Origin: an uncultured virus (IMG/VR IMGVR_UViG_3300035662_000013)
Taxonomy: Duplodnaviria > Heunggongvirae > Uroviricota > Caudoviricetes
Reading direction: 5' to 3' (one strand)
IMG/VR virus record: IMGVR_UViG_3300035662_000013
DNA: 64,000 bases
Position 1 is the stretch's first letter. Each line of letters begins with the position of its first letter. The notes beneath the pieces were generated by a model that searched no databases, was not told where the DNA came from, and saw only the letters and a list, made by a program, of their open reading frames with translations. A program made the translations under genes and the position numbers. Of the stretch, positions 2,948 to 28,000 are shown piece by piece.

Positions 2948-5440
2948 ATGCAACATATCAACGAACAACTGTTGATTGCAAGAGAATTTAGCGCTGTTAT
3001 TCGCAATATGGGAATTTATGGATTTTATAAATCAAAAGATAAAATCATAGAAGAGAATAAGGCTAAAAAGAAGCATAATCATGTTGTTTTTTTAACAAAA
3101 TTGTTTAGCTTTCTTGATAAAATAAATGTATATACAGAGAATGTTGTAAATGACTATTATAAAAGTGATAATAAATCACTAGAATTAGTTCTTTCTAATA
3201 ATTTTTCTAATCTATTATTATCATATAAAAATGATTACATATCAAAAAAACTAAAAAATGGAGCTATAAAAACAAGGTATATTAAATCTTCGAATTTAAA
3301 TTTCTTTGATTATATATCTGATTCTGATTCGTCAAAAATAACAGCAATATCTAAGTCTAAGTTTTCGGCATTAATCTTTTCTTCATTAATACATGAGTTT
3401 GGAGAGATGACTACGAACTTAAACAGGATAGCTTCTTGTTTCGCAAATAAAATTTATTCTGACTCTACAGAGAAGAAAGAAATTAGATTCTATGAGATAT
3501 TAAGTGATGAAATGATAGATATTATGATTATTAGACACATGATATCCTACATGGACCCATTTCGCTCAAGTATTATAGGTACGACAATATCTAAATCAAA
3601 GACAAAGAAAATAGCAAAACAAGTATCAGAAAGATATTATGCTTCATATTCAAAGAATCATGGAGATAAAATAGCTATAAAACTTAAAGAATTCGAAGTT
3701 ATATTAACGTATATAGATGAGTATTTAAAAAATACCGCTATATTCACAGAAAATATATTTAAAAAAGAAGTAAAGCAAAAGTTCTTTTCTGAATATTCTA
3801 TATCAAATATAATATCGAATACATTTGATTTTATGGAGAATAACCTAGAATATTTTTTAAAAAATACCGAAGTAAGAGAAAAAACGGAATTAAACACATA
3901 TACCGGCAATCAAATTGTCGTAAAATATAGAGCTCCAATTGAATCGAAATGCAGTGATATTGATTATTGCAATAAGATAATTGAAGTTGTTTCTGAGACG
4001 AATAAATTTATCGAAAAAATTAATGAAAAGATTGAATTAGATAAGAAAGCGTTAGCAGAAAGAAATAATGTAAAAAACATAATTGTAGAAGGAGATGATA
4101 TAATCAAATATTACAATAGCTCTTCTTATAGTGCATCGTATGGCGGCACATTATGGAACTCATGTATGAGATATCCAGAGCAAAAGGAGAAAATTATGTT
4201 TTATGCAAAAAACAAAGAACTTGTTAAGTTGTATATACGGCTTGACGAGGATCTAACAAAAATTAAAGGTCGCGCATTAATTTGGTTTGATAAAGAAACA
4301 AAGAAAATGTACGCAGACAGACTTTACTACACCGATAGCAGTACGTATAATTCAATGGTAGCATATCTACAAGGTCTTAAGAATTGTAATCTTGTTCATT
4401 CAAATGAATCAGGAATAGCAGGACACCTTAGAAGCGGCTTCCCAAAAATTAAAATTTCAAATTTAAACGCAGCCCTAGAGATGCCTTATTTTGACAGTTT
4501 AAGCACTGTTCTTGTAAATAAAGACGGTTTAGCTGTAGCAACTTCATCTGCAGTTGGAAAAAACGATATTTCACTTCCAATTGGAGCTATAAATATCAAT
4601 AGTCCAGAATTATACATAGAGGCCGCAAAACAACGCACATGTAAGATTTGTGGAGCCGTACTGAGCAGTAAGAGTAATTTAACTGAATTGGAATTAGGCG
4701 CTGTATGTAATAGGCATATTAAATTAATGACTGACAACAAGGTTATTATTATAAATTCAGGAGGCCTGCAGACAGAAGACGGGACTATGCTTAAAGGACC
4801 AGTTACAAAAGATTTTTTGTCGACAGGAACTCGTGGAAAATATGAATTTAATTCAAAGTTAAATTTTATTAAAATGGATACTTCATTCGGAGAATTGCAA
4901 TATAGAATTCATGAATTTTTATTTTCTCACAATTGCGATGTTTCTTACAGGCCTTGTATTTATGGAGCTACGACCATATCAGATGCTGAGAAAATTTATT
5001 ATGACGAAACGTGTACAACCATGTCGTTGCAATTATTGAAATCAAAACTAACAGTAGTTGTTCCAAAAAATCCAACAGAAATTGAAATTAAAGCGATAGA
5101 GCAACTGTCTATAATTGGTCCGATTTTAGAGTCTAATCTATATAATGCAAACAGAAAGGCTATTATAAAGCTTGCAGAAAAGAATATCGATAAGTACGTT
5201 GCAAAAGTAATGTTATTGTCTGGGTATACTGCAAAAGAGCTGTCTGTATCGAAAGAAGCAATTCTCTCTACAAGAGGAAGATATGAAAATGAAATATTGG
5301 CACTTCAAAAAGAAATAGCGAACTCTTCTGATTATACATTGAAAACTGTATCTTCTTTGTCTATGATAAATGAAGAATTATATTTTTCATTCAAATATAG
5401 AGCGCTATTAATCAAATTAAAAGATTTAGTACAAGAATGA
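2948..5440 (+). CDS. Large phage protein with SCM...RAL(I)W...DRxY domain and a possible Zn ribbon
   Basis: Motifs GGTLWNSCMRY, KGRALIW, YADRLY, MPYFDS and CKICG...CNRH. ATG at 2948 follows the upstream stop; the 3' end overlaps the peptidase start (ATGA). Confidence 0.65.
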   Translation: MQHINEQLLIAREFSAVIRNMGIYGFYKSKDKIIEENKAKKKHNHVVFLTKLFSFLDKINVYTENVVNDYYKSDNKSLELVLSNNFSNLLLSYKNDYISKKLKNGAIKTRYIKSSNLNFFDYISDSDSSKITAISKSKFSALIFSSLIHEFGEMTTNLNRIASCFANKIYSDSTEKKEIRFYEILSDEMIDIMIIRHMISYMDPFRSSIIGTTISKSKTKKIAKQVSERYYASYSKNHGDKIAIKLKEFEVILTYIDEYLKNTAIFTENIFKKEVKQKFFSEYSISNIISNTFDFMENNLEYFLKNTEVREKTELNTYTGNQIVVKYRAPIESKCSDIDYCNKIIEVVSETNKFIEKINEKIELDKKALAERNNVKNIIVEGDDIIKYYNSSSYSASYGGTLWNSCMRYPEQKEKIMFYAKNKELVKLYIRLDEDLTKIKGRALIWFDKETKKMYADRLYYTDSSTYNSMVAYLQGLKNCNLVHSNESGIAGHLRSGFPKIKISNLNAALEMPYFDSLSTVLVNKDGLAVATSSAVGKNDISLPIGAININSPELYIEAAKQRTCKICGAVLSSKSNLTELELGAVCNRHIKLMTDNKVIIINSGGLQTEDGTMLKGPVTKDFLSTGTRGKYEFNSKLNFIKMDTSFGELQYRIHEFLFSHNCDVSYRPCIYGATTISDAEKIYYDETCTTMSLQLLKSKLTVVVPKNPTEIEIKAIEQLSIIGPILESNLYNANRKAIIKLAEKNIDKYVAKVMLLSGYTAKELSVSKEAILSTRGRYENEILALQKEIANSSDYTLKTVSSLSMINEELYFSFKYRALLIKLKDLVQE

Positions 5441-9017: not shown

Positions 9018-12000
9018 TTAATAACCGTATTCTCTTTTTATAGAATCCCGAATGTGTTCAGATTTTTTTCTCATTCTTTTTATTTCTTCAGGATCTACGC
9101 CTGCATCTCTTAGCATATTTTCTTTGTCTTGTTTCTTTTGAAGCAATTGCTTAGATTTCTCTCTAGCTCTTGCATTCCAGTTTTCAGGCCAAATAAAATC
9201 TCTAACCCTACTATATGGTATAAACATACTTTCATTTAGAAACGCATCATCTTTCTTAAAGTTGGGATTTCCAATGTATGGTTGATATTGCTTAGCTATA
9301 GGTATGATTTTCAATAATGATTTATCTATCTTCCTAAAGCCTTCATAGTGTCCGGTTCTAACTATGTCTCCATAAGAACCATCTCCAACCATATCTAATA
9401 TCTCTCTGCCTTGTGTAATTATACCTATAGTACCAAATGGTTCTTTCTGCAGATTATAAACATCGGATGGAGACATCATGGCACCAACCTCCATAGTAAC
9501 ACGAGCCATCAATAAATATATTAACATCTCCCATGACTCTTTTATCTTATCATCATCGTCCCCGATTGCGTACTTGCTAAATATAGTTGCTGCAGCAGAC
9601 AATGCTATAAAGAACGTGAATTCCTTAGCAAGCCTTTGTGCTGAGTACCTTTGACTGTACTCGTATTTCTCGTTGACATTTGACATTTTCATGAACAACA
9701 TATTCATCCATATTTTTGGAGCCGTCTTTAAATTACCCCATCTATAGATACCACTAGTCTCTACCCCTAGATCGTACCTATACATTTTTGGATGGAACCT
9801 ATCTTGGATTGCCCACAATAAGTAATTCTTATGTAAAAGCATCATTGAGCCAACTAGATTTCTATGTGCTGCAGTTCTCTCTGTTCCAGTTAACGATCCA
9901 TCTAATTTACGAGACATAGATGCTGAAAGTAAGCTTACTTGATTTTCTAGCTCTGGAGTTATATATTCAGCATATTTTGGATCTATTACTAGATTGTTGT
10001 CAGCAACGCTGTATGCAGAGTATAGTGTATCTTTTATCAAATCCCATTCCCTAGCCCCTTCTTTTCTTTGAGCGCCAGGGAAAAATCTAGTTAAGAATTG
10101 CTCTCTACTATAAAATTCACCTTCATACAACCTAAAGTTGTCTAGTATAGCTATCATAGACGGAGCCTTTATTGCAAAGTCGCCAGCCTCGTATGGGCCA
10201 TACCAGAATTTATCTTCTACATATCTTGCAAATTTCCATCCATGCAAGTTTTTCATATCCGACTCGTTGCTTCTTGTAATGCCAAAATATCTCATAAGAG
10301 ACGTTATCTTATCATTGCTTCTATTAGTGGATGAAGCTACTATGCTAGGCAAACGTAGAGCTATTTCTTTATTAGCAAACATAAGTCCTTTTTCTGTAAA
10401 GAATGAGCCCATTGATGCTTCTATTTTTTGCTGAACCTTAGCACCACCAAAGTTACTGAATATAGATTTTATATTATATCCAAGATTGACTATCCTAGTA
10501 TAAGATATTATTGCCTTTATAAACTTGTCTACAGATACGGAGCCGATTCTACCAGAAGTAACTTTTTCTTTGTTAAACATTCGCCTAATCATATTATATA
10601 GTGACGTAGCGATATTGCCTCTAGATATTGAGAATTCAAGTGCGCTTACTTTATCATCACCATAAACTTCTGAGTTAACAAACTCTGCGGCTTTTTGGTA
10701 CATTCTACCGCCAGTCTTAACCTCTTTCCCTTTTGGATCATGTATCTGAACATTTCTAAGCCCTTCTAGTATAGTTTCTATGGTTCCACGAACCTTAGAC
10801 ATCTCAACGAAATTAAGAGATGACGAGTAATACATAGCAAATGAGCCAAGTAAATCCCTGGATATCATATTTGTATCCTCAAGCATCGTTCTATATCTAG
10901 TTGGTATATGCTTAACAGCTGTGCCGTCGGCATAATATTTACCACTCGAATCTGAATCCCCAATAAATAAATCCTCAGGCATATAATTCATAGAGTCTTT
11001 CAACGCTTTTATAAATCCAGATATCCAATTGCTGCCTCTAACAACCTTTGCAAAGAATGATGTAGATATTTGAGGCAATCTATTTGGATTAGACCTATTC
11101 ATATAGAAGTAGTTCTCATTTGCTTTTTGCATAGCACTTCTATACGCTTCTAAAAATTCCTTATCTTCTTTGTTTGAAGTTAATCTATTATATTCCTTAG
11201 AGTTATCATACATTGAGCGTTTTGGTTGCATACCATATTTCTCTCTAGACTTATCATAATCCTTATTATATAATGGAGAACTTTCGTCTAGCTCTTGCCA
11301 TATGAAGTTCGGAGAGATCTCTATAAACGACTTATTCTTTGGAACTATTTTTGACCAGTGAGAATATAGAGTAAATTTACCTTTTTTATTATAATACCCT
11401 GAATTCTTTTTAAATTCATTCAGAGCATTAACGCCAGCCGATGATTTATCTGCTGATAATCTCTCTATTTCACTATTATAGGCTTGATTAGGAACAACCT
11501 CCGCTATATCTTTAAATTTAAATCTAGCAGTAGATGTTGTCTTAACTCGAGTGTCTGATAGTTTTTTATCTATTCTTTTTATTAGCTCAGCTATGTGCTT
11601 ATTAGCCTCAACCCTTGTACCTATAACCTCCATAGTATTCATATCTCTATTATACTTAAGTAGGTCTTTTCTTATTTGGTAGAGTTCTTTCCATTTCTCA
11701 GATTGCATTTCATTGGCAGATGAAGAAATCATCTCGTAAAACTCATCTTTAAGTCTTACGGTAGTATTCTCTTTCATCCATTCCTTGAACTCAGCTGCAG
11801 TCAAAGTCTTTCTTGCGTTTTCCTTGGCTCGTTCAAATGCATCTACATTGAATTTGTATTTTATACCATCAGTGGTAGCTTTGTAGAATTCTTGAAGTTC
11901 TATCGCTACATTATAATCGTATGAACCTACAGTCTTAGGGGTACCATCAGCGTATGTAAGCATAGATAAGGCTTCTTTTCTCTTCTTTATGTCGAACAAG

Positions 12001-15000
12001 CTTTCCTTATCTTCAAGGGTCATTCTTTCAGTCCTTATTATTCCATTCTCATCTCTGAATTTAGAATAAAAAGATCTAAGTATGTCATCATATTCTGTCA
12101 TAAGCTCTTGTGTTGAAGGACTTATATTCTCTCTTAGCTTATAATACTCAGGAGTGAATATGCGCTCAACGTTAGCCTCCATCCAAGCATTCTTTTCTTT
12201 TTGGAATTCAGCGGCTTCTTTTTCATCAATAGGAATTGCTCCATGACCAGTTAATCCGTATCTGAAATTAAGGTCATTCATAAAGATATCGTAGTTCTTG
12301 TAGAACGAACCATACTTTAAGTCAGACAGAAGATATCCAGTTGTTTTGCCATTGTCATTTTTCTCCATATATCTAGAGAATGTAGCGTACTTTCTCTTAG
12401 CTCTAACAGCGTCCCATTTTTCTTTTAAACCAAGAATCACACCATCAGTCTCCATTGTGCGTCTAGCGTTCATCTTAGCCTCCTCAACCTTGGCAAATAG
12501 TATTCTATGCTGCTCCTTAGGAGACATCACCATCGCACCTACAAGCATTGTTAATTGACCTATGTCGTCGCTCTCGCTAAATACAGTCTGCTCTGAAGTG
12601 TCTGAAGATTTCTTGGTTATACCTTTAACTGTAGTGGATCTATAATTTAACCCCTCTCTCTTTATAGTATTGACATATTGATATTCATTTAGCCCGATAA
12701 GCATTGACTTGATATCATCAATCTCAGACCTAATCTTTCTTACGGTGGCAATAAGACTATCTATATCTTCTTTTGGGAAGCCCTTGGCTATAGACGGAGA
12801 GTCGTTTATAATTGTACTAATAGCAGCTGTTGCTGAGTCATACATAGATAGGAAGTTCTTAGATATATCGAATAACTGCTCATCATCAAGCCATTTGCCT
12901 GTGTTCTTAAGGACTACCATCTTATCAAGCTTGACTCTTACGTCTTTGATTTCATTTGCAGAGAATTCTATAAATTTAATCATGCCAACCATCGCCTCGT
13001 GTTTTTCAACGTCCTTTATTAGCAATTTCAATGAGTCTAGATAGGACTGAGTAACGTTCTTACTTCTCTCTGCTGTATGCAGCTTAGATTTCAATCCAGA
13101 AAGAACCCTATTCATTGTAGCCATTGCTGTAGACTTACTTAATTCATCCGATGTAACCATCTCTGAGTCAAGCATTCTATATGAGACATTAAATGAGTCT
13201 GGGCCTATATCAGCCATTCTGTCTACTGGAAACAAGACTACTGTATTTTCATCTATTTTAGACACAAGCATAGATGGAGTAAATCTCATAATAACGCCAA
13301 TAAACTCAGTTCTATCTGACTTAATTGTAATGGCGCCATCTCCAAGCCTACTAGCGGCCCTCAGAAATGCTATTACGTGAGAGTTTTTTAACCCATATAA
13401 AGTATCGTCAGTTGGGAATTGATATATATCATCAACTTTTTTAAACTCAAAGCGATTTCCTGTTTTTCCATCTTCTACTATTATATCTCTAGAAATAGAC
13501 ATTTTGTATAACTGATGAGAGAATGATGCTAAAATATATGCACAATCATTTTCTTTCTCAATTGAATATTCATTTATTCCATGCTCTATTGCTCTTTGCT
13601 TAGAAGTATCGCTTTTAAACAGATTAAGAAATTCAGCTATAGCTATGTTAGCTCCATTTATTCCCTTTATTTCATTTGTAATCGAGTCGACTGACTTTGC
13701 CATTAAGTCCTTATCCTCTAGAGATAATATATCAACAGCATTCTTTCCGTACAATACATAATCCAGCATATCTCCTATTGATATATATGGATTTATATCT
13801 GTTGGTATGGAGTTGTTTCCAAATATTCTTTTAATAGTCTCTGTCAGAGCTCTTAAAGCTCTAGACCATAAGTATGCTATCTTCCTATTCTCTCTATTGT
13901 TATATTCTTTTTCTATAGACCTAATAATTATTTCATCTCCTACAACTTCATCGTCATATGTTTTTATGGTCTTAGCGTCGTCAATATATGAATTGTTGAC
14001 AGCATTAACTATCTCTGTATTTTTCATTGCCTCCGCAAGTAACGCGTCATATATCTCTCTATGTTTTGGATCTGAGCTTGCTCTTAATGCAAACATCATT
14101 GGGTGACCAAACATTTCATGAATAATATAACTAGGCTTTATTGTATCGTAGAAAAATACAGCGCCTCCAGCTTTATAATATGCTCCTGTATTCATTGACT
14201 TAGAAACTCCATAAAACATAGATGTATTTCTATTCATAACATTGAACTTTACACCAAACCTTCTACTAAGGTCATCGGCTATTCTTACAATGGCCTTTAT
14301 TTGGCGTTTAGAGACGTTCTGAGCCACTTTCTCGGCAGACATGGAGGTTAGCCTATCCTCGTTATTTTGAGTGGCTGAAATCGCCTTAGAATCGGTCGTT
14401 TTTACAAATGCCTTAAATCCTTCTATATCCTGCTTAGAGCCTAAAATATGAATCTGCTCCTTATCGAATACGACGTATTGGTCATAACTCCCAAGCTTAT
14501 CTGAGAACTTATCATTTGTATTTGTCGCTATAATTCCATCATTAGAGCCTTCATTTATCTTTGCTTTTATATATTCAACAGACTCTTTATACTCTCCTTG
14601 GTACAATTTATCAGTAATATCTGGATTTTGTATGTTAACAAGTATAGCCTTTGTTTTTCCTGTAGTACCCTTATTTCTAGTCCATCTGTTTGCGAATTCA
14701 TCTGCAACACTTTTGATTGTGGCAAAAAATCCATGGAACCCACTAGTTCCAAACTCAGGATTGTTAAAATCTGCGGCAGGAGATCCTCCGTGGTATACAA
14801 TGTCTTTTACTTTGCTGTCTGGAAATATCGTTTCTAAATACCGTGAGTACTGTTCCTTTGTTCCAATTTTAGATAATTCTGGATTTTGCTCGAATACAGT
14901 ATTTATTCCGCTGTCATTTCCTGTTGATTTTTTCGGAAGAAGGTCGGATAGATATTTATCAGTAGTAATAACTTTTTCTTTTGGAAATTTACTTACCACT

Positions 15001-16049
15001 TCATTTATTTGAGCCTTCCATTCATTAATATCATACTTAACTCCTCTAGCATTAGCCCTGTCTTTGAATTCTTTATCAGTTAAGTTTATTACTCTATCAA
15101 ATGAAGACGAATTGTTTCTAAGTAAATTAGTGTTTGACGTGAACAGCATTTTACCAGATAAGGCGGCCTCTTTTTTGGCAGCATCAAACAGCCTCTGCAT
15201 CATATCGTTATACTCGACGTTCCATTGCATATTTCCGCCATCTTTCACTAAATGTTCGGCTACTTTATATTTTATCGCAATGGCGCTAACCTCTCTATTT
15301 ATCTCTTCTGCATAGTCGTCATCTAGAGAAATAAAACTATCGGCTCCATTGTTTTTAAGGAAACTTTTTCCTATAGTTGGATGTCCAAATAGAACAACAT
15401 CTGTCTGTTTAATCGAATTTGAAACTATAATCTCATCAGCCTCAGATAAGTCGGACAATCTCTCTTGTGTGCTATATACAGGAGTATCAAAATCAATCTC
15501 GCCTTGCAGCTCTTTTGGCTCATCCAGCTTAGTTATCCATATAACTCTACCTTTACTATTAGGGGACTTTTTAAACGATAAGGAGTATTTACCTTGGATG
15601 TCATTTCTAGACGACTTTTTATTAAACACCTCCTCTATGAATTTAGCCTCGCCTTTTTCATTGTCAGGAAACTTTGAGTATGGGAAGGTTAAGATATTTC
15701 CATCATCATTTAATAGATTTAGTTCTTTATATAAATCCCTATTTGTAGATATAGGCAATATTCCAGCTCCATTATTTACATTCTTCTCGTATTCAGCCTT
15801 ATACTTCTTATCTCCACTAAGTACAAATTTAGAATAGTTAAGTATATCCGGAGTGTCTAAATTTGGCTCTCCATTTGTTTTATCCCAAACTGCGTATGCA
15901 TGTTGCATAGCGAAGTCATCGACCCCGCTACGCTCATCACGCAATTCTTTGTATTTAAACTCATCAATAGTCATTGGTCGACCACCGAACGCTTGAACGA
16001 TCTTATTAAAATCATTCCTTATTTTTTTATCATTAATATTTGGGCACAT
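9018..16049 (-). CDS. Large virion-ejected polyvalent protein (2343 aa) with P-loop, ART-like and zincin modules
   Basis: Downstream of the virion RNAP, as in crAss-like phages. GHPTIGKS Walker A (15363-15386); IVYHGG...GFFAT...NIQNP...DGII...QYVVF ART-like module (about 14400-14910); HEMFGH (14103-14120); hydrophobic helices near the C-terminus. Confidence 0.8.
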   Translation of the reverse strand: MCPNINDKKIRNDFNKIVQAFGGRPMTIDEFKYKELRDERSGVDDFAMQHAYAVWDKTNGEPNLDTPDILNYSKFVLSGDKKYKAEYEKNVNNGAGILPISTNRDLYKELNLLNDDGNILTFPYSKFPDNEKGEAKFIEEVFNKKSSRNDIQGKYSLSFKKSPNSKGRVIWITKLDEPKELQGEIDFDTPVYSTQERLSDLSEADEIIVSNSIKQTDVVLFGHPTIGKSFLKNNGADSFISLDDDYAEEINREVSAIAIKYKVAEHLVKDGGNMQWNVEYNDMMQRLFDAAKKEAALSGKMLFTSNTNLLRNNSSSFDRVINLTDKEFKDRANARGVKYDINEWKAQINEVVSKFPKEKVITTDKYLSDLLPKKSTGNDSGINTVFEQNPELSKIGTKEQYSRYLETIFPDSKVKDIVYHGGSPAADFNNPEFGTSGFHGFFATIKSVADEFANRWTRNKGTTGKTKAILVNIQNPDITDKLYQGEYKESVEYIKAKINEGSNDGIIATNTNDKFSDKLGSYDQYVVFDKEQIHILGSKQDIEGFKAFVKTTDSKAISATQNNEDRLTSMSAEKVAQNVSKRQIKAIVRIADDLSRRFGVKFNVMNRNTSMFYGVSKSMNTGAYYKAGGAVFFYDTIKPSYIIHEMFGHPMMFALRASSDPKHREIYDALLAEAMKNTEIVNAVNNSYIDDAKTIKTYDDEVVGDEIIIRSIEKEYNNRENRKIAYLWSRALRALTETIKRIFGNNSIPTDINPYISIGDMLDYVLYGKNAVDILSLEDKDLMAKSVDSITNEIKGINGANIAIAEFLNLFKSDTSKQRAIEHGINEYSIEKENDCAYILASFSHQLYKMSISRDIIVEDGKTGNRFEFKKVDDIYQFPTDDTLYGLKNSHVIAFLRAASRLGDGAITIKSDRTEFIGVIMRFTPSMLVSKIDENTVVLFPVDRMADIGPDSFNVSYRMLDSEMVTSDELSKSTAMATMNRVLSGLKSKLHTAERSKNVTQSYLDSLKLLIKDVEKHEAMVGMIKFIEFSANEIKDVRVKLDKMVVLKNTGKWLDDEQLFDISKNFLSMYDSATAAISTIINDSPSIAKGFPKEDIDSLIATVRKIRSEIDDIKSMLIGLNEYQYVNTIKREGLNYRSTTVKGITKKSSDTSEQTVFSESDDIGQLTMLVGAMVMSPKEQHRILFAKVEEAKMNARRTMETDGVILGLKEKWDAVRAKRKYATFSRYMEKNDNGKTTGYLLSDLKYGSFYKNYDIFMNDLNFRYGLTGHGAIPIDEKEAAEFQKEKNAWMEANVERIFTPEYYKLRENISPSTQELMTEYDDILRSFYSKFRDENGIIRTERMTLEDKESLFDIKKRKEALSMLTYADGTPKTVGSYDYNVAIELQEFYKATTDGIKYKFNVDAFERAKENARKTLTAAEFKEWMKENTTVRLKDEFYEMISSSANEMQSEKWKELYQIRKDLLKYNRDMNTMEVIGTRVEANKHIAELIKRIDKKLSDTRVKTTSTARFKFKDIAEVVPNQAYNSEIERLSADKSSAGVNALNEFKKNSGYYNKKGKFTLYSHWSKIVPKNKSFIEISPNFIWQELDESSPLYNKDYDKSREKYGMQPKRSMYDNSKEYNRLTSNKEDKEFLEAYRSAMQKANENYFYMNRSNPNRLPQISTSFFAKVVRGSNWISGFIKALKDSMNYMPEDLFIGDSDSSGKYYADGTAVKHIPTRYRTMLEDTNMISRDLLGSFAMYYSSSLNFVEMSKVRGTIETILEGLRNVQIHDPKGKEVKTGGRMYQKAAEFVNSEVYGDDKVSALEFSISRGNIATSLYNMIRRMFNKEKVTSGRIGSVSVDKFIKAIISYTRIVNLGYNIKSIFSNFGGAKVQQKIEASMGSFFTEKGLMFANKEIALRLPSIVASSTNRSNDKITSLMRYFGITRSNESDMKNLHGWKFARYVEDKFWYGPYEAGDFAIKAPSMIAILDNFRLYEGEFYSREQFLTRFFPGAQRKEGAREWDLIKDTLYSAYSVADNNLVIDPKYAEYITPELENQVSLLSASMSRKLDGSLTGTERTAAHRNLVGSMMLLHKNYLLWAIQDRFHPKMYRYDLGVETSGIYRWGNLKTAPKIWMNMLFMKMSNVNEKYEYSQRYSAQRLAKEFTFFIALSAAATIFSKYAIGDDDDKIKESWEMLIYLLMARVTMEVGAMMSPSDVYNLQKEPFGTIGIITQGREILDMVGDGSYGDIVRTGHYEGFRKIDKSLLKIIPIAKQYQPYIGNPNFKKDDAFLNESMFIPYSRVRDFIWPENWNARAREKSKQLLQKKQDKENMLRDAGVDPEEIKRMRKKSEHIRDSIKREYGY

Positions 16050-16069: not shown

Positions 16070-19000
16070 TTAACATTTATCTGACGGTCTTTCATTTCCA
16101 ATCAGACTATTATTTGGTTTAAACGACTCAGGTATTTTAGTTCCATCAGCTGAAACTTGTTTTTTCTCTGAGTTTAATTTTTTAGTATTAGTAATTACAG
16201 TAGCAGTTCTACGAGCTCTAGATACAGCCGTATACAATGCTTTCCTGTAAATTAATCCATCAAAGTTTTTATCTATTCCTCTGAGGTCCGAATCAAGAAC
16301 AAGAACGTTTTGATATTCTCCGCCTTGAGCTTTGTGTACTGTAGATGCGTATGTAAATCCAATAGTTCTATCCTTTAAATTATTTGACGCATTTTCGTTA
16401 TCAGTTAAGCTATTTTTTATAGGTTTAAGCGTAATGAAATCTTTAGTCAATGCAATAAAGAAGTTTCTATTAGCCTCTCTTTTTTCTTGATAGTCCATAT
16501 TACTTATCTCCTGTTTCCGCTTAAGAATAGCCGCTCGTATTGCAAGCATATTCTCTTCGCTATAATCAGTTAATAAATTAAATACGCCTCCAGCGGAAGC
16601 ACCAGTAGTCATTCGTATTTCTATTGGAACAACTTTCAATGTTACTCCAGGCACTGCGTATGACGTAATCTCTCTAGGAGCTCCTATGCTGTCAACAACA
16701 TATTCATCGTCGTTCGCAACCAAGTCTACCTTTCCAGCCTTTATTTGACTATATCCTATGACTTGTTCTCCAACCTCAATCAATCCTTTCTTTCCTAATT
16801 TAGCTCTAACATAGGCATTCATTGAGTCTATTACATCATTTCTAAATGCCAATATCTTAGCGAAATTAACATCCTTAGAATAGTCTTCTGACGTAAAGAA
16901 CATATCAACAAATTGCTCTACTGCTTTCGCTCTATCAGCTTCGCCTACAAATACAACGCCGCCTTGGTCGTTAAATGCATCTCTCTTAGAGAAGATTGCT
17001 TTAGACTGGTCGGTAAAATTATATTCAGTTCCATTGATATTCATAAGCCCAGGAGCCTGATACATTCTCATAATACTTAATACATCTGCTAATGGATTTC
17101 CATTCGCAACACGCATAACCTTATTAAGAACTATGCTGGTTGGAGATTCTAACCCAATTGATTGTTTAGGCATTCCTTTTGCGTCAGTATTTCCAACAGG
17201 ATATAACTGAGCATGATCTCCAATAAACAATACTTTAGCTCCAGTAGCTTCCGCAACTTTAAGTATTTCATCTACACTCTTATCTGAGATTAAAGAAACC
17301 TCATCTATTATATATAGATCTACATTAGATTCATAATTAGTAGCTCCGCCAAACTCAAGCTTCATACCAACCTCTCTGGCCTCTGGGACTAATTGAAAGT
17401 AAGCATGATATGTTTTAGCTTTCTTGCCAGTAGCTCTAGATAATACACCTTTAGCTCTATGTGTTGGAGCTAATAATTGATATGTAATCTCAGCATTGCT
17501 AAGTGCATTTATAAGTACTCTAGTTATGGATGTTTTACCAGAACCAGCAGAGCCTAATAGCGAGAATGGGGTAGTTATTGTTTTATCTTTAACCCATGCT
17601 TCTATTGCTTTCAATGCAGCTTCTTGCTCATCGTTTAATTGATAAGGAATACCAATCTTACTTAAGTCAATATCTTTTCCAAATAGATTTATATCAGCTT
17701 CTGATGGAGTATCAGGCGTTACTTCACTAACGACAGCATTTTCACTTTTTGATTTCAATCTAGAATATGCCTTCTCTGCAGATAACATATTCATATTATT
17801 AAATTCGCCATTTCCTTGCTGATACATTGCCGAAGTCATTTTTCCGTCAACAAATCCAAAAGCATACGTAGTCCCAAATTCAGTGAATCTTTCTTGTGTC
17901 ACTTCCGGCTCGATAATTGCTTGTTCAGTATTTGATGTCTTCGTAAAATCATTTACCTTTAGACTACCATCCTCATTATAATACTTAAGCGAAACAACAC
18001 TGTTATGTCCTGCATAGCAATATACACAGCTACTTGCGCATTTATCATTATATCTTAATGCATCCACCTTATTCCCGTAGCAACTACAATCTTGTCTTTG
18101 ATTTCCTTGGACATGAGTAACATCAGTCCTTCCCATCGCAGCGTTTATAGATTGAACATTTAAACAACCTAATTTTTGAACTCCGTCTACGTTTACTTTT
18201 TCAGCACAAGAACTTAATTGTCGTATTCCATATTTCTTACAAAGATCGCGCATTTTAACACTTAATTCATCTATTATCTCCTGTTTAGCGCTAAATTTAA
18301 TATTGTCATTTGTTTTATATGCTGCAAAATCGTAGCCAAGTTCCTTCATTTTAGCTACTATAAATCTATCGTTTTTAGATCCTGAATAGCTATCCATTAC
18401 ACTGAACTTAATCTGCCTAATTCCCATTTCTGACGCTCTCTTTATTACACGCTCTACGTCATCAAAATTAGTAACTCCTGGAATGATAGGGTCAATCCTA
18501 ACTGTTATTAGATTTGGATTTAAAAGGCCTTCTTTTATAAATGTCTCAATCCTATCTAATAAGTCGTCGTATTTCATAACGCCTGGCTCATACTTAGTGC
18601 CGCCAAGAGTAGTTATGCTGAAGTGATAGAATTTAGGAATTTTTAATTCAGCCAATTCTTTCAATGGGAGTCCGTCATGTTTTGTTATAAGATACATTGC
18701 ATTTACCCCATTAGTCTTTCTGTTGGCTACAATTTCTTTTATTTTCTTAACATGGAATACTGGGTCTGACGTCTCGCTGGCTATAAGTATCTTAGGTTTT
18801 CCTCCATCATTAAATACTTCATTAACAGTTTCCTGGTCTTGCTTACTTAACGATTCTTGTTTTCCCTCTATAGATTTTATAGTAGACTCATGCTCTTCTT
18901 CACTAGCTGTAGTGTTTTCTTGATTTTTAAATGTATTTTCAAACACATCTCTAATAGCCTGTTTTGCGGCATTTTCTTTCTCTATTCCTAAATACTCTTT

Positions 19001-22000
19001 TCTTGGCTCCCACTGATTAGTAGTCTTATTTAAAGTATTATAGTTTTCAATATCTCTAGTACCAACGCCAGCGAAGTTCTTTGTGAGCATAGGAGTGCTT
19101 GTTGGGACAAACTTTCCTACAATCTTATCATCTTTTCGCATTTCCGGAACAAACCGCATCCATTGCTCAGAGGTTACATCCCATACATATACTGGCTTTC
19201 CTAATTGAACTCCTAATTGAACTGCAGTGTTTGTTCCGCCGAACACAGTTCCAGAATTAAATTTGGCATCTCCAGATATTTTTGCTATTGCAAATACAGC
19301 ATCTGCATTAGACACTTGATAATAATTTCTTACTTGCAGGTTGCCTTCTTTTGTATCCGGGTATTTCTTGCCTAGCAATTTCTCTATCTCAGTTCTAGCT
19401 TTATCCATCTGTTCCGTTGTAAGAACAGTGGCTTCAACTTTCTTATTTCTAAGCGCTTGAGATAAAGACTTATTATCTTCTTGTCTGTAATGCCTATTAT
19501 CAGTTACACCATATTCTCTACCAATTTGATCCCAGAAGGTGTCAGCACCATAAGCGCCACCAGAATGATTAGTGAATTCAGATGCAATCGAAATTGATTT
19601 AGCAGTAGACTTTTGATTAAACGTAACAATATACCTATTATCTGATTGACTAAAATTATTATTCTTTCTTATCTCTGTATATCCACTAAATCCAGCCTCT
19701 CTTACCATTTCAAAGAACTTATTCATAAGCTCTATTTTTTCTGGTGTTCCATTATTCAATATATCAAATGGAGATCCATATTTTTCCTGAAATGCTTTAT
19801 ATATCTTATCATAGGCCTCTGTATAGACAGACGTCCCATTGGGTAGTAATTCTGTTTTAAATAAGAAGTTATTTAGGCTTATTCGTTTTTTAGAAACATT
19901 ACTTCCATAATCCCTGGCCTCCTCTTCTGATGTGGAATAGAAATTATATTCTCTATTGTCTGCTACATCAGACTTTCTTCCTTGATATCCAGTAAGCGTG
20001 CTAGATTCGTTAATATTAGTTAAATCCTGTTCGCCTTCTGCTTCTGTAGTAAGATCTGCGTTTAATTCATCTCTAACCTCCATAAGAAGTCGAGGAAATT
20101 CAGTACTCCACTTGCCTTTATCTTGCGTATGAGTAAGTATTGCGTTCCCAGTTGCTAATAATTCTTGAAGTGCATCAGGGTTTTGTTTAAATGATTCTAG
20201 CAATAACTCTTTCATGATAGAAGAAGAGGCTTTATTCCATCTATCTACGTCCAAATGTTTAAATTGTCTTCCCAGGGCTTTGGCCTCAGCAGGGTTTTTA
20301 CTGTTCTGTATTTGTCCAGCCAGTTTCCAATTGAACTCATCATCCTCTTTTGACATCTCATTCCCAAAGCCTCCACCAGACAGCATTTGCGGCTGCCAGC
20401 TACCATCATCTCTTACATTTCCAGTATACGTGTATTTGGCTAATTGGAACGCTTGCTCTACGCTAGTAAAGCTGATATCTCCCTTAATCATATTCAGCCT
20501 AGAGGATCCTGTTGGCAAAGTAAATGGTCTTATTGCGAGATTACTTAAGTTTGCATTTTCTCCAGTACCAGCGTATATGTTAATGCTTCTAGCATTATTG
20601 CTAGGTTGCATTTCTACTTTCCTAATAAATTGTCCTAGATAGGCCTCTGCGCTTGTTTTAAGCTCTTCTAAGGCACTTTCTCTATCTTCCTGGGCAATTG
20701 TATTATCCGGTAAATTGAGTTCGTTAAAACGGCTTAAAATGCCTCTAGCGAATTCCTCCCTCATTGAGGCTATCCTTGCGCTATCTGTAATTCCAGCATC
20801 TTCTATAGCATTATCTAAATAAGACATAGAATAACTATTGTTATCTATTGCATTAGTCACTGCTTTATCTACTGTGCTAGCACCTAAGCTCTCAACGAAC
20901 TTATCTTCAAGACCCATAAACATATCAAACCAGCTTACTTTATCAAATCCAGCCTCTTTCGAGAATATAGATGAATTTATATTTGACTGTGGAAGTTCGT
21001 TTGTCTTTATTACAGAAGTCTTTGAATTAGACTCTATAAGTGCAAGACCAGATGCTTTGCTACCTTTTTTGTCAACAGCAACATATACTGGTTTAATAGA
21101 CACATCGCCTTTAGCATTAGACCTTGTCGAGTTTCCTATGTATTTATATAGTATTTCAAACTGTCTTCCATTGGTGCCTGTCTTGATTATCTTAACGAAT
21201 GGCTTAAATACTGGATGTTTTCCATCAGATGTAGATCCAATAGGTCTAGCAGCAGTGTCTATAAATTCCAATTCATATTCAATACCAAGCATCTTTTTAG
21301 TCGACATTTTCTTAGGTTTCTGATCTACTAATGGATGCCCATCTTCATCAAATTGACCTTTTCTTACTTTATATGCAGTGGTAGTTGGAACTAGTTCATT
21401 ATCCCACCATCTACTAATGAACAAATCTTCCAAGAATTTAACATCATTTTGAAGCGCTACTCCAGGAGTATGTTCATATGATAATTCATTCAGTTCCGTC
21501 AACACATCATCTATAAAGTCGTATAGTGCAATCTTGATTGGTGCTCCAGTATTAGCATCTACTAACCCTGAATTAATCTCCAGTGAAATTCTATCATCCT
21601 CAGATAATTTAACGTAATTTAATGCGCTATTGTCACCAGTGCTATAAAATTGATATAGTATGAATCTCTTAGCAAAATCCTTAAGCATAACCCTATCTTT
21701 ATTTCTAGATTTAAGTGCGCTTATTTCTTGTTCACTAAGGCCTTCTTGCGATTCATCTTCAAGTATTGGATTTAATAATTCAGAAAAATAGTACTTTATC
21801 TTCTCTTGAATATTTTTATCGTCCTTCGCAGATGAGTCTATAGTAACATGGTCTGGATAAGACTCCTCTGATTTACTATGCATAGTATATGACAATACCT
21901 TCAAGAAGACATTGTTTTCATATCCAGGTAAATGACCGTTATTTATAGCAGACTTGATATGGAATAATTCCTTAGCGACAGTGTCTTCTCCAAAGAACAA

Positions 22001-25000
22001 GCTATTTATATCTATATCGTTTTGTTCTGCATATTTTCTATAAAAAGAATCCTTAATTGCCGTCTCGACATACCTTGATACGCCATGCATGAATTTGCTA
22101 TTGTCAAAACCTTCTCTTCCTGCAAGTATATTTACTTTGTTAAGAATAGATAATACTTGTCTAGAGGTTCTAAATAATAAACCACGACTTATTCCTACTA
22201 TTAACCCAGAGCTATTTCTAAGCCTTGCCATCAATGGTGTAGATTCATAATAGTTTCTTACGCCACTAAATACAGACGTTCCATTATCATCATCCAATAT
22301 CAATGAATTTACTTTTGAAATAAACTCATTATTTGCTATAAATGATTTACCTTGTTTTTTGGTCTCAATTTGAGAGTATTTGACAAGCTCAGATAATTCG
22401 TTAGAATATGGAAGTAATTCTAAATAAGTTTCCATTACCAATATCTGGTGCAATAGATAATCAAAATTAGACAAGTCTTTATTTAGGCCAGACTTTAATT
22501 TAGATCTACTATTAAGTACATCTCCTGTCGGCATATCACGTCTACCATATTTATCTTCAACGAATAAAGATTCTACGTATTGAGCGTTTTTACCACCATC
22601 AATTCTAGCAGCCATAGCTCTATATTTCTGTAGCTTGTCCTTTATTACTTCATGCAACTTCTTAACAGAATCTTTATTTACTTCATATTTGCCATTAAAT
22701 TCTTCAACCTCAGCATAAGCCTCTTTTAAAGATGGTTGTGATAAGAAGTAGAATGCGTTTCCGCCAATACCAGCTCTAAGTAAGAATGCAACCATATTAA
22801 CAGTATGTTCATTAACACCTAGTCGTATGATATATGGATCTTTGGCAACGTCAACGTGAGCATTAATCATGGCAGATAGCCAGTCCAATATACGCATTCC
22901 GTCAGCTCCATATATTCCTCCAAGTTCAAATATTCCGTGTTTAGCGGCTGTCCTTTGTTTTGGATTTATAGTCAGATTAGTCATCTGCGTATAAATATGG
23001 TTTGTATTAGCAAGTGCCATTATACCCAAATTCTTCTTGCCTGTAGAATACTCAACTTTCTTATCTGTTTGATATGAAGGTGATGTAAACATAAGAGCTC
23101 CTCGCTTTTCTCCAGTGCCAGTAACTGAGTCTATGTCTGGAAGAATATCGTCCTTTATTACACTAGTAGTAGCATCTAATGGAAGCCTTGTTTCATGTAT
23201 AGAAGATGGCTCTGTTATTGCAGCCATCATTACATCCAACAATCTATTTTGGATAGCAGCATTTGAATTTACTTGCCATTTAGACTTCTCTGGATTCTTC
23301 TCACTTTTCTTGTTGTCATCAAACTCAACCTTTTCGAATCGACCAGCTGGGTTTTTAGCATAGTTATATCTAGCTAAATACAACTTGTCAACGTCAAAGT
23401 CAGAGCCTGTGAGCGCAGTGAATTCTGTTGGAAGAATTATAGTATCTCCAATTATCTTAGGGATAACATCTATAATCTTTAATGATGATACAGATGACAT
23501 ACCTTGAGTTGGAATACGATATCCTAATGCAGCAGGATCTGAGTCAGGACCGATTATATTATGCATTAAAAGCCAATCTCTTTGCTTAACTGGAGACATC
23601 AACTTAACATCCTCTGGCAAAACATCTTTAAATAATGATAGAGAAACGACACAATCCATGCTTCCGTCAGCATTCATGTAATTTAACTTTCTTCCACCAT
23701 TAAGCTTATATCCTTCGCTAGTTATGCTGTCTGTAAGTGTATTTATACCAAATGTAGACATCTGAATAAATGCACCACCTGGGGTATTGACATCAAGAGT
23801 CTTCTTCATAATAAATGAAACAAGTTTGCTCTCAATCCAATCTCTATCAGCCATGGCCTGAAGTGTTATCCTGCTATTTGGCTCAGCTGCCTTCATAAGG
23901 GTCTCGTAGACATCATCAGTCATATTAGACTTGATTGCCTCTGAATGCAAGAATCCGTATAATTTCTTTTTATCGAAAGTCAATACTCCGCCTTCGTATT
24001 TAATTCCTAATTCATTCTCTACATCATTTCTACCCCTATTAGATATCTCTGTTAATGCATTTGACCATTCCTCTATTAACTGTCTTCCTGTAGCACCTTT
24101 ATTTCCGCCTATTGTTATATTTGAATAAACTTTATCTGACACTATATTGGACATTGCAACTTTTTGAACCTGAGTTGCCAATCCAACCTCCTCTTCCTCG
24201 TGAGCTTCAGTTTCAAGCTGATGTCTAAGGAATTCAAAGTGCTGAATTTCTTCTGTAAACTTATCAAGGTTAGATACATTACCGTCTTTGTCAAAGAAGT
24301 CTATTGGATTATTATTCCCAGACTTAACAGCAGATGAGAATGCGACCATATCTATTTTGCTTGCACCATCTTCTGGATTGTTCATCCTTTCATATAGAGC
24401 TTTATTTGCACCTGTAGCGACAGATCTAAATAAACAGAACATTGCCATCTTGTCTAGTTTTGGAATATTTAACCCATTACTGAACTTATCTCCATAATAT
24501 ATCATCTTAAGCGGATTAAGAGCAAGCTCCATCACTTTTAGATATTTAGCAGAATCTTCCATCCAAGACATATCTTCTGATTCCAATAAATCAAATGCCT
24601 CATTTAAGTCTTCATTCCATCTTCCTAATTTTCTAAGTATATCTCTATACATAACAGGAGATATGAACACAGAAGCGTCTGTTTCATTTACTTTATTATA
24701 TCCAGCAGTCTGAGCATCAACTATATTCATTATCATTTTGATGTCTGATAACTTATTTATCTCGTCCATATTTCCAGAATTAATAGCCTCTAATATTTCA
24801 TTAAAAGTCATATTTAATTCATCGCCATGTCTTTCGTTTACATGAGCAGCAATCATCCTTGATTTTATCTCAGATAAATTAGGAGAAGGTATTTCATTGT
24901 CATTTAACTCAGCAGACACAAATGTGGATCTTCCTGTTTCAGATAAACATGGAGTACCTGTTGATAGTATAGAAGATAACCTTTTTATCTTAGCATCAGG

Positions 25001-28000
25001 ATCTTTATGGAATGCAGGGTCTTTTGAGAATATCTTTTCAAATTCTATTGTAGATATGGATGTGTTCACCATATGCTCAGCAACCATATTGTAAATAGCA
25101 GACGTGTCGGCATAGTCACTAACAAGAGATTCTTTTGAGTTTAAATTAGATTGTTTGATGAAGTAAGCTCTAGTATCTTTAAATATAGATTTATCTAGCT
25201 TCTTATTTTTATAGAATACGCCATTCTTTTTGTGCTGTACAGTTATAGCGCCATTCTTAACAAGCCACTTTAATTCTCTAGATATTGAATTAGCCAAGGT
25301 GGCATTCATTATTTGGAATTTAGTTTCATTTGATGCATTGAATATTTTACTATCCATTTCCTCAAAGAATCTAGTCATCCCATTAATTACTCCATATTGG
25401 TCTATCAATTCCTCTTGATATTCATTTAGATTTACAAATGAGCCGTCGCCTTTTATGTCAATAGAAATTTCATCGAAATGCCTAAATTTCATACCATTAC
25501 CAAGTCCTGAATTCCATTTGCCTTTTGTGGTATATTTATTTGCACCTCTTTGTGAGAATCCGCCGTAGTGATATGTTTGTTCTAGTTTATTTTTATTACC
25601 CATTGCAACCTTCCATGCACTCCAAGCATCCTGCATTGCAAGATATTCTGCCTCAAAGTATCCATTGAATATAGCTACTGTTTTTGTAGGGAATGTGATT
25701 GATTGTCTAACTAGCCCATCTTTCAATGAATTCATATCAACAGCAATAGGAGTTCCTTCTTGTTTAGATACGCTAAATGACGGCATTTTAATGCCAGCAA
25801 ACATGTACCACGATTTCTTATCAGCCATAGTAGGACATAACATATATCCAGAATTAGTGGCTGCCATTTTCATCATATAATCCTCCATAGGAGATAGTGC
25901 AAAGTAATCTCTACCTTTATCTCCAGAATTATCTTCATAGAATTTCAAGAATGTCTTAACCTTTAATCCCTTTGATTCACCTGATTGTAATTGGTCTAGT
26001 ACTATAGAGCCTCCAACAGTAGTTCTGTCTCCTTCGAAAGCTGCTCCTCCAATCCTGCCTGAAGCAAAACTAGATTGCATTACTTTATCCCTGTATTCAG
26101 TGTCAGTAGATATTCTTTCTGCCGTCTCTGTCACATAGTTTGGTAGAGATATCTCATATACCTTGGCTCCATCAGCCCCGGTAGAAGTGGTCTCTGTTAT
26201 ATTTGGATTGGCCTTGAAATACATCATAGCTATAAATCCTGTCGACTTCTGAGACTTGTAGATCTCTTTTCTATCTACCTTCTCTTTCCTGTTTACTATA
26301 AGCTTTCCATCATTCTTAACTAGGTCTGTTATGATGTTGGTAAGAACAAATGATGGGTGTTCTGGTTTTGATTGGGTGATTAAACTAGCTATAGCGTTTT
26401 TTCTAGATGCATTTGGATAAGAATGTTTGATTATCTCATCTATAGTTGCATCGTTTATAGATATGCCTATTTTATTAAATATATCAATATACTCATTAAT
26501 AGCAGCAGTAATTTGCTCGTCAGTAATCTTTTCAGCTTCTAGTGGATTTGTTAATCTACCGGCAAATGATACAAGTGCTTTATGTCTGGCTATTATAGAC
26601 TCGGCATTAGCCTTGTTAAATACTGGCCCATCAACACTATCAGAGAATAAAAATCCAATAGACATCATGTTCTCACCCCATTCTTTTGGCTTAGTTATCT
26701 TGGCAGTTGTAGCCTTTGACTCTATAACCCTAAGTCTTCTGTCGGCTTCAGCCATGTTTCCATTTTTGTCTCCAGTAAATGCTATACTCGCAAAGTCATG
26801 TCTATGACATTTTACTGCGGCAAAGAATGCTGTTTTAAATCTATCGCTAGAATTGTCAAGCTTATCTAATACGCTTCTATAGAATAAATTACCAGATACA
26901 ACACCAAGAGAATATATTTTATTCCTCATCTCGGTGTACGATTTCAAATGACCTAAATCGCTTGCAACTGTAACCCACGACGTGGTCTGGTCGTAGAATA
27001 ATTTAAAGCCAGTTAATGGGTTAAATTTATCTACAACAACACCGTCTGCATTTTTCTCTTTTTGAGGGATAGTCCATAAGAAGAATTTAACCTCCATTGG
27101 AATATTATCAGACTTAGGAACCTTATATGATTCTACTGTATGTTTAGCTATCTCGTTACTTACGATATCTTTATCGTTATCCTCTATTTCGTTTCCATCT
27201 ACATCGAATACAGCTGGGGCTATCCCAAATGAAGATAATTCTTTATTTATTAATGGAACTATTTCCTCATCAAATTTATCCAATATATCTTCATATATTT
27301 TATATTTCAATGTATCTTCCATTCCATTTTCTTCCATATATTCATACTCTGCAAGAATACTATCATATAGTACGTCTTTACTCATATTGCGGATATCAGA
27401 AACTTTTTCAACTCCAGATAATTCTATGAATGAGAATGCTAACCCCTTGGCTACTTCGTATTGCATATCCAATGTATTGATAGCATTGAATCCTTTTGAC
27501 TTCAAAGTTCTAGCAGCTCCATCTACATAGAATCTAGTAAAGAATTTAGATTGCTCAGATTTAGCCTTTGGACCTTTTTTGTTTTTAAATATACCGTATT
27601 CGATATCCTCAAATAATCTATTTATATCAGACTTGTTTGCAGACTTCATTCCAGTAAATAGGTTGGAGAATTTTCTGAATACAGATCTAAGCATCGGTAT
27701 CTTAATGCCGATCTTATTAGTCTCTCTCCATACTCTAAATTCCTCGGCTAAGTATTCCTCTATATCCTTATTTGTAGCATCACTCAATGATGGTATAGTA
27801 CGCCTAACTGAGTCATATATCATCATCCTTCTATTTCTTGGTATTAACCCAAGAGACACAATGTGAAATGCTTCGTGGTAAGCAGTGCCTCTTTCTGCGC
27901 CAGAGAATAGTGTAATAATATTCTTTAAGATGTTAGCTACACCCATAGCAATATCACCGTTCTCCATTTCAATTTCAGTATCACTGATTTCAATAAGAGA

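Follow-up and report, generated by a model that had tools for sequence, protein, structure and literature searches.

The window (the whole analysed stretch of 64,000 nucleotides from the uncultured virus IMGVR_UViG_3300035662_000013 of IMG/VR) belongs to a gut crAss-like phage and encodes on the minus strand a giant protein of 6070 aa (P0001; 16070..34282, a single open frame in translation table 11), which contains a domain of the DUF1848 family. The initial annotation, made from the letters alone, had proposed such a domain, and the profile hidden Markov model (HMM) search confidently identified it: the Pfam model of DUF1848 (PF08902) matches aa 5178–5424 (18011-18751) with an E-value of 1.7e-19 (score 71.1 bits, gathering threshold 30.5; profile positions 35–262 of 262), and a six-frame search of the whole virus record finds DUF1848 at 71 bits. 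The pairwise alignment with canonical bacterial DUF1848 also takes in the N-terminal 'ASxxxDP' and therefore the whole domain spans approximately aa 5163–5424 (18011..18796, minus strand). All ten motifs that had been listed for the region 18005..18800 are present in the minus-strand frame at the positions given for them, among them ITKH (aa 5199, 18677-18688), FSITT (aa 5221), EPGV (aa 5232), RIDPII (aa 5262), SCAE (aa 5358), GCL (aa 5372), QRQDCSC (aa 5395) and CASSCVYCYA (aa 5415, 18011-18040). Of the 55 relatives in the family alignment, 54 likewise match PF08902.

The C-terminal end of the domain exhibits the sequence C5415-x3-C5419-x-Y-C5422 (18017..18040, minus strand), in which C-A-S-S-C-V-Y-C corresponds to the CxxxCx(aromatic)C cluster motif of radical S-adenosylmethionine (SAM) enzymes. 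This C-terminal cluster, also recognised in the initial annotation, is invariant in the alignment of 39 stand-alone members (A3) and in an alignment of 11 rows (A1), and nearly invariant (>=90%) in the family alignment of 55 sequences (A2). Four further conserved cysteines, C5359 (in CAE), C5373 (in GC), C5399 and C5401 (in CxC), lie at 18080..18208 on the same strand; all four are invariant in A1 and A3, and in A2 this holds for C5359 and C5373, with C5399 and C5401 nearly invariant; together they are a candidate second metal or iron-sulfur (Fe-S) site. Of the 14 cysteines in the whole protein, 8 are packed into aa 5348–5422; when 14 cysteines were placed at random 100,000 times, a 75-aa window never received more than 5, so this clustering is far beyond chance. 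C5348 is not conserved, which leaves a conserved set of seven, i.e. the three of CxxxCxYC plus C5359, C5373, C5399 and C5401. The domain in the window retains 7 of 7 invariant and 14 of 14 nearly invariant columns of A2; the active-site-like residues kept include K5201, T5224, E5232, R5262, D5264, P5265, S5294, D5297, Y5299, E5361, R5396 and K5405. The polar residues at the strand ends (K, T, E, RxDP, SxxDxY, E, R, K) and the cysteines are kept in both phage and cellular members, a pattern that suggests an active enzyme with a possible second cluster.

The AlphaFold2 model of the domain, built on 55 sequences, is of high predicted quality (pLDDT 89.9, pTM 0.89). Its comparison with 48,161 representative PDB chains, carried out with a tool whose stated background is Z 7–8, placed radical-SAM enzymes on all of the ranks 1–8 (Z 9.2–10.3, rmsd 2.8–3.8 Å, 154–196 residues aligned): 3can (a domain of a pyruvate formate-lyase activase; Z 10.3), 4fhc (spore photoproduct lyase, SPL; Z 9.8), 3c8f (pyruvate formate-lyase activating enzyme, PFL-AE; Z 9.8), 6fz6, 7jmb, 6xi9, 7qbs and 4u0p. 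The statement that DUF1848 is related to radical-SAM proteins and lacks a known function agrees both with these structural matches and with the papers listed for the family, which assign it none (in their main texts; supplements might name the domain otherwise). Residues 1 to ~205 of the model align to residues 127–341 of SPL and 61–245 of PFL-AE, i.e. to the parts that follow their cluster loops, and positions 63–164 of the Radical_SAM model (PF04055) match, below its cut-off, the N-terminal half of the domain. In MoaA, CysS and biotin synthase (BioB) it is the N-terminal cluster motif to which the last 25–30 residues give local HMM matches. The cluster loop is the last element of the domain and is not found near the N-terminus after the first strand, as it is in PF04055. 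Since the N-terminal half resembles the post-loop part of SPL and PFL-AE and the motif stands at the C-terminus, the modelled DUF1848 domain reads as a circularly permuted radical-SAM-like barrel with the canonical CxxxCx-aromatic-C loop at its end; barrel strands 2–6 would come first and the strand with the CxxxCxYC loop last. Weak matches to PF04055 were also found for 15 of the 55 relatives (best E-value 0.0082), and no other unrelated family recurs among them. In direct sequence comparison the single domain has no match in the PDB at E<=10, and the 55-sequence profile yields only local matches to cluster motifs (E-values 0.17–0.84). Compared with 3can, 3c8f and 4fhc, DUF1848 shares the partial β/α barrel (154–189 residues aligned) and the CxxxCx-aromatic-C motif, but differs in the place of the loop and in the four extra conserved cysteines, and the sequence similarity lies below family thresholds. 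Binding of a [4Fe-4S] cluster and cleavage of SAM to a 5'-deoxyadenosyl radical are predicted from these features.

The initial annotation had proposed a DNA repair or base de-modification enzyme, which remains a putative role, and had called the domain loosely SPL-like; the latter holds for the general fold (4fhc, Z 9.8) and not for any specific likeness. In favour of an SPL-type enzyme that repairs ultraviolet (UV)-induced thymine dimers in the entering phage genome, 4fhc is among the three best structural matches (189 residues aligned); some source databases also label relatives as 'DNA repair photolyase'. SPL nevertheless ties with unrelated radical-SAM enzymes, its score being equal to that of 3c8f and near that of 3can, and the SplB-related model NF033668 (SPL/SplB-like, COG1533) matches just 86 profile positions with 20.8 bits, its cut-off being 360. 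With the cluster motif at the opposite end of the chain, the lack of a PDB sequence match and the little UV that gut phages of anaerobes would meet, we regard such repair as very improbable; on the model, the likeness to SPL is that of the general radical-SAM fold only. Non-catalytic Fe-S clusters are common in helicases, primases and glycosylases, and DUF1848 could likewise be a zinc or non-catalytic Fe-S module with a structural, DNA-binding or redox-sensing role and no radical chemistry, in favour of which stands the sub-threshold match of the Radical_SAM model. The exact CxxxCx-aromatic-C spacing is, however, conserved in phage and cellular members, and a dozen conserved polar residues at the ends of barrel strands form an enzyme pattern, so that we consider a non-catalytic role quite unlikely.

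The protein that carries the domain contains a virion RNA polymerase core (aa 3000–3643; 23354..25285, minus strand), identified by its similarity to gp66 of phage phi14:2 (6vr4_A, E-value 1e-38). The alignment pairs 'TGSDFDVDKLY' of the window with 'TGSDFDIDKMY' of gp66, so that the DFDxD loop is retained (SDFDVDK, aa 3627–3633, 23384-23404, minus strand); this is reportedly the metal-binding, catalytic loop of gp66 (Drobysheva et al. 2021). The core is followed by four enzyme domains, all on the minus strand, in the order NADAR, DprA/SLOG-like, DUF1848 and superfamily 1 (SF1) helicase. The NADAR domain (aa 4576–4721; 20120..20557) is matched by PF08719 (E-value 1.7e-12, 48.3 bits against a cut-off of 35.1) and phrog_1017 (E-value 9e-18) and, weakly, by the NADAR structure 8bau. 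The DprA-like or SLOG-type domain (aa 4901–5032; 19187..19582) was identified by phrog_768 (E-value 7e-11) and has no Pfam match even at E<=1. The Dda/RecD-like SF1 helicase (aa 5545–6034; 16181..17650), directly C-terminal to DUF1848, is supported by phrog_325 (E-value 2e-57), AAA_30 (E-value 7e-25) and UvrD_C_2 (E-value 2e-11).

Homology to gp66 and the place of the ORF at the end of the virion module, after the genes of the terminase, portal, major head protein and tail fibre, support the view that the giant ORF encodes a virion protein, as the initial annotation had it. The polymerase core and DFDxD loop are shared with gp66 (6VR4), and the cargo proteins gp47/gp49/gp50 of PhicrAss001 are homologues; the chain in 6VR4 comprises 2194 residues, while the ORF in the window continues for ~2400 residues beyond the core, with the four enzyme domains. 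The RNA-polymerase proteins of PhicrAss001 were detected in virions by mass spectrometry, and the crAss cargo is argued to need partial unfolding for passage through the tail (both from PMC10172136). By analogy with gp66 and the PhicrAss001 cargo, the C-terminal part with DUF1848 is predicted to be packaged and ejected. Unrelated effector domains and a polymerase core in one ORF beside virion genes constitute the arrangement known from the polyvalent proteins of phages and conjugative elements (Iyer et al. 2017, PMC5512222), which likewise combine many unrelated enzyme domains in a huge polypeptide, are linked to virion genes, have been proposed to be co-delivered with DNA and show shuffled domain order among relatives. 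The carrier in the window differs in being a virion RNA polymerase, and the text of PMC5512222 contains none of the terms 'radical SAM', 'Fe-S', 'iron-sulfur', 'NADAR' and 'crAss'.

For other stretches of the giant protein, Pfam searches at E<=1 with aa 1120–1330, 2050–2400, 3700–4560, 4722–4900 and 4901–5140 returned nothing usable. Sequence inspection revealed an HEAFH (HExxH) motif at aa 2136–2140 (27863..27877, minus strand), a candidate zincin protease site that could process the polyprotein; its region has no Pfam family match. Between NADAR and the SLOG-like domain (aa 4722–4900; 19583-20119, minus strand) the sequence 'FYSTS' (aa 4781–4785) is preceded by 'GYQGRKSD'. We take this stretch to resemble the R-S-E pattern of ADP-ribosyltransferases, and it has no Pfam match at E<=1.

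HMMER searches over 1.84 billion representative sequences identified 522 proteins with the domain at E<=1e-3, of which 184 remain at <=1e-10 and 76 at <=1e-30. Giant relatives number at least 64: among the best 150 proteins, 64 are 700 aa or longer, and the longest has 7202 aa. Segments related to those of the window were found in these 64 proteins as DprA/SLOG-like (28), NADAR (19), polymerase core (16) and SF1 helicase (11), counts that are minimum values, since the mapping detects only near relatives of the segments in the window. The partner domains occur in shuffled order, and the nearest detected neighbour of DUF1848 is the SLOG-like segment in 25 of the 64. Pfam analysis of 20 of the relatives revealed the architectures DUF1848-NADAR-DUF7831-YpsA (P0119, 735 aa, which also matches Phage_30_3), Macro-DUF1848-YpsA-DUF488-N3a (P0126, 725 aa), DUF1848+NADAR (P0075) and DUF1848-cpYpsA (P0027). 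In IMG/VR the domain is present at 25 loci, mostly on contigs of 45–133 kb (three are of 19–27 kb and one of 223 kb), and the language-model clusters closest to the domain of the window are DUF1848 clusters with a viral share of 75–94%. The only catalogued phage in which tblastn detected the domain is cr272_1 (Suoliviridae), which carries it in a hypothetical protein of 6386 aa.

Canonical cellular DUF1848 proteins are stand-alone (~300–400 aa), occur in anaerobic Bacteroidales and Clostridia, and represent end to end the same domain as that embedded in the 6070-aa phage protein, with 23% identity over the whole length. They share with it the invariant K, T, E, RxDP, SxxDxY, CAE, GC, QRxxCxC and the C-terminal CxxxCxYCYA; the canonical genes score 257–376 bits (full profile), and the domain of the window and its phage-type kin 44–72 bits (Pfam model). 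Sampling of 151 Bacteroidales genomes (the order to which a Prevotella record belongs) gave canonical genes in 27, sampling of 301 Clostridia-type genomes (the phylum to which a Flavonifractor record belongs) gave them in 90, and among 14 control genomes that of Bacteroides thetaiotaomicron alone carries one. At 4 of 15 canonical loci in Bacteroidales (L080, L081, L082, L091) the immediate neighbour is an SF1 helicase gene with the same direction; further neighbours are, among others, a DNA methylase (L084) and an Exo_endo_phos nuclease (L092). Among the Clostridia-type neighbours (60 of 86 ORFs scanned, the 26 shortest dropped, with the DUF1848 gene itself missed at L094 and L121), Ogt (L108), MutS domain V (L096) and NUDIX_4 (L106) are single finds and, as hints of DNA repair, anecdotal. 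A conserved operon for cellular DUF1848, sought in these neighbourhoods, was rejected as the signal is partial (the helicase at 4 of the 15 Bacteroidales loci and in none of the Clostridia-type ORFs scanned).

Several canonical copies are present in some Clostridia-type genomes. One of them (G356) has five matches, at ~2.79–2.87 Mb of contig C1, several with in-frame stops; in another (G291) matches with near-equal scores lie at the identical offset 25–816 on contigs C76 and C3, and transposase genes adjoin two further canonical copies (L112, L116). Repeated or mobile DNA may thus be the carrier of some canonical members. According to a published survey (bioRxiv 10.1101/2021.12.02.470933), a DUF1848 cluster is tied to the UG25 methylase-reverse-transcriptase group.

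Short phage-type copies (~230–270 aa) were found at 49 genome loci, which by their record titles belong mostly to gut, rumen and sediment anaerobes; one Natrialbaceae and one Cytophagales record do not fit. The link to anaerobic hosts suggested by the initial annotation is consistent with this distribution and with the single control genome. The neighbours (41 loci with 160 ORFs of 110 aa or more, four loci without a picked gene and four partial matches being excluded) resemble those of prophages or mobile DNA: RtcB, NrdD/NrdG, dUTPase, guanylate kinase, integrases, HNH and polymerases, with no constant single partner at the 41 loci. At one locus (L031) a UvrD helicase overlaps the end of the DUF1848 gene and SprT is also present, and at two others (L028, L037) an SF1 helicase and PLD are nearby. 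At four loci of methanogens and Methanoperedens (L014, L021, L029, L030), Macro+YpsA/YAcAr fusions, DUF488-N3a and NAD-dependent DNA ligase lie within three genes; this is the partner set of the fused phage proteins, but as separate genes. A role as glycyl-radical activase, suggested by the top fold match to PFL-AE and the nearby NrdD/NrdG, was dropped, since an NrdG is already encoded at those loci.

These neighbourhoods bear on the nature of the substrate. The commonest fusion partners (NADAR, Macro, YpsA/SLOG, DUF488) handle ADP-ribose or nucleotides, stand-alone copies lie in blocks of nucleotide metabolism (NrdD/NrdG, dUTPase, guanylate kinase), the many invariant K, R, H, D and E at strand ends would suit a phosphorylated ligand, and QueE and MoaA, small radical-SAM enzymes among the structural matches, act on nucleotides; moreover, viral SLOG domains have been proposed to degrade signals like cyclic ADP-ribose (cADPR) (PMC9503650). 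DUF1848 might accordingly act on a small molecule, i.e. a free nucleotide or a derivative of NAD or ADP-ribose, destroying an immune signal, detoxifying a chain terminator or making a modified nucleotide for the polymerase. Yet the fusion and adjacency to SF1 helicases and the DNA substrate of the phage NADARs point to polymers, and no cyclase, TIR or other signalling partner was seen among the partners, which makes us think a small-molecule substrate unlikely. The neighbourhoods also bear on the time of action. Stand-alone phage-type copies stand in replication or nucleotide-metabolism blocks and not in virion blocks, and the giant ORF belongs to the late, virion gene block; an oxygen-labile cluster would be best used before the virion leaves the cell, and the cargo is thought to be partly unfolded on exit (PMC10172136). 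Perhaps, then, DUF1848 works late in the producing cell, on progeny DNA, the polymerase or other cargo, and is undelivered or a spent passenger? Early action is, however, the simplest explanation of the repeated fusion to a polymerase that must act first and to NADAR, which de-modifies incoming DNA, and we give the late role only a small chance.

Ahead of the giant ORF, PHROG matches identified on the minus strand the terminase (61477-63522), the portal (58927-61467), the major head protein (56304-57776), a tail fibre (50461-52725) and an endolysin; a replication block with primase and exonuclease is on the plus strand (1–8.9 kb). Both GC skew and AT skew change sign at ~8–9 kb, the junction of the plus-strand replication genes and the minus-strand virion and cargo genes. 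The whole virus record has 85,865 bases and is estimated to be 83% complete. The head protein is 73% identical to its homologues in cr118_1, cr50_1, cr55_1 and cr1_1, of which cr118_1 is classed as Suoliviridae, Uncouvirinae. The head protein gene is unbroken in the window, while in its nearest catalogued relatives, cr118_1 and cr50_1 (NC_055872 / NC_055868), it is annotated in two pieces, between which cr50_1 has an HNH endonuclease gene; this suggests an intron or homing element in the relatives that is absent from the phage of the window. Directly downstream of the giant ORF lies an ORF of 2343 aa (9018-16049, minus strand), for which neither PHROGs (E<=1e-5) nor PDB sequences (E<=0.01) gave a match. 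An ORF of 2281 aa occupies the equivalent position in cr272_1, and the 2343-aa ORF may encode a second polymerase-associated cargo protein.

Returning to DUF1848, we give an even chance to the reading in which the domain is an Fe-S, SAM-dependent enzyme that acts on nucleic acid as part of a co-delivered DNA-care or counter-defence kit. An Fe-S, SAM-type enzyme is favoured because the fold, the motif and the conservation support it. A nucleic-acid substrate is suggested by the helicase fusions and adjacencies and by the action of phage NADARs, which strip ADP-ribose from phage DNA (PMC11257639 and PMC11125620), and the same helicase links and NADAR action would argue for a purpose in early DNA care or counter-defence. 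The comparison with AdfN / T4 gp30.3, the anti-DarTG1 protein of these two reports, is limited to the NADAR domain, which in the giant protein precedes DUF1848 by ~450 residues; AdfN is synthesised after infection as a small protein on its own, while the NADAR of the window is fused in a giant protein, and AdfN says nothing direct about DUF1848. The kit of NADAR, DprA/SLOG-like domain, DUF1848 (a [4Fe-4S] and SAM enzyme with a second four-cysteine site) and SF1 helicase, borne on the C-terminal side of a Suoliviridae-type crAss virion RNA polymerase, would enter the cell with the DNA or just ahead of it. There the helicase would expose strands and NADAR would free bases of ADP-ribose, while the part of DUF1848 would be to reverse or process a lesion or a modification for which radical chemistry is required. 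If the cargo passes the tail partly unfolded, as proposed (PMC10172136), the clusters would need rebuilding by the host, and its Fe-S machinery could do so in the anoxic cytoplasm.

Several observations weigh against this reading. The Z-scores of ~10 are only modestly above the background of the tool, with plain TIM barrels close behind (isopropylmalate synthases, Z 8.7–9.0); the Foldseek search of the PDB gave weak hits (E-values ~1e-3) to mixed TIM barrels, with a TM-score of 0.49 for SPL, and PF04055 remains below its cut-off (16 bits versus 29.5, E-value 0.014). The helicase beside canonical genes is only remotely like that of the window. The gene context is inconsistent: at 30 Clostridia-type loci the scan of 60 neighbouring ORFs found no helicase, and Macro, SLOG or DUF488 neighbours occur at only 4 of 41 stand-alone loci, all from methanogens or Methanoperedens. 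A tblastn search found the domain in 1 of 50,697 catalogued phage records and the head protein in 138, and the domain is therefore a dispensable accessory rather than a core part. The literature search found no biochemical fact on any DUF1848 protein. Finally, it is improbable that a [4Fe-4S] cluster would withstand an oxic virion and then extrusion by way of the tail; we propose re-metallation by the host as the simplest answer to this problem. The bolder version, in which a true radical-SAM enzyme travels as unfolded apo-cargo on the virion RNA polymerase, is re-metallated by the host and, in the first minutes and together with NADAR and the helicase, erases from the incoming DNA a defence mark that hydrolytic enzymes cannot remove, seems doubtful to us.

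Literature searches, limited to main texts, found no radical-SAM-like domain reported in a crAss polymerase protein or in any ejected phage protein, and no precedent for Fe-S clusters in virion-associated or ejection proteins. Nothing relevant was found on permuted radical-SAM proteins; among the papers listed, DUF488 provided no lead and the combination of crAss-like phages and NADAR yielded nothing on this subject, and radical SAM is unmentioned in the available part of the paper on viral NAD and ADP-ribose enzymes (PMC9503650). The DUF1848 family and the polyvalent-protein idea are known already; the present analysis adds the evidence for permutation, the seven-cysteine pattern, the partner counts, the split between viral-type and canonical members and the partial helicase linkage in genomes of the host clades.

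DUF1848 is a widespread family without a known function, for which the polymerase fusions with NADAR, Macro, SLOG and helicase domains provide a concrete, testable setting, suggestive of nucleic-acid care or de-modification at entry. An oxygen-labile Fe-S enzyme as ejected cargo, noted as unexpected already in the initial annotation, would be unusual and would raise the question of how its cluster survives, or is rebuilt after, the tail. If early erasure of a mark by radical chemistry proves true, it would be the first function for DUF1848 and the first Fe-S enzyme known as ejected phage cargo, and radical chemistry would join the counter-defence repertoire of the most abundant human gut phages.

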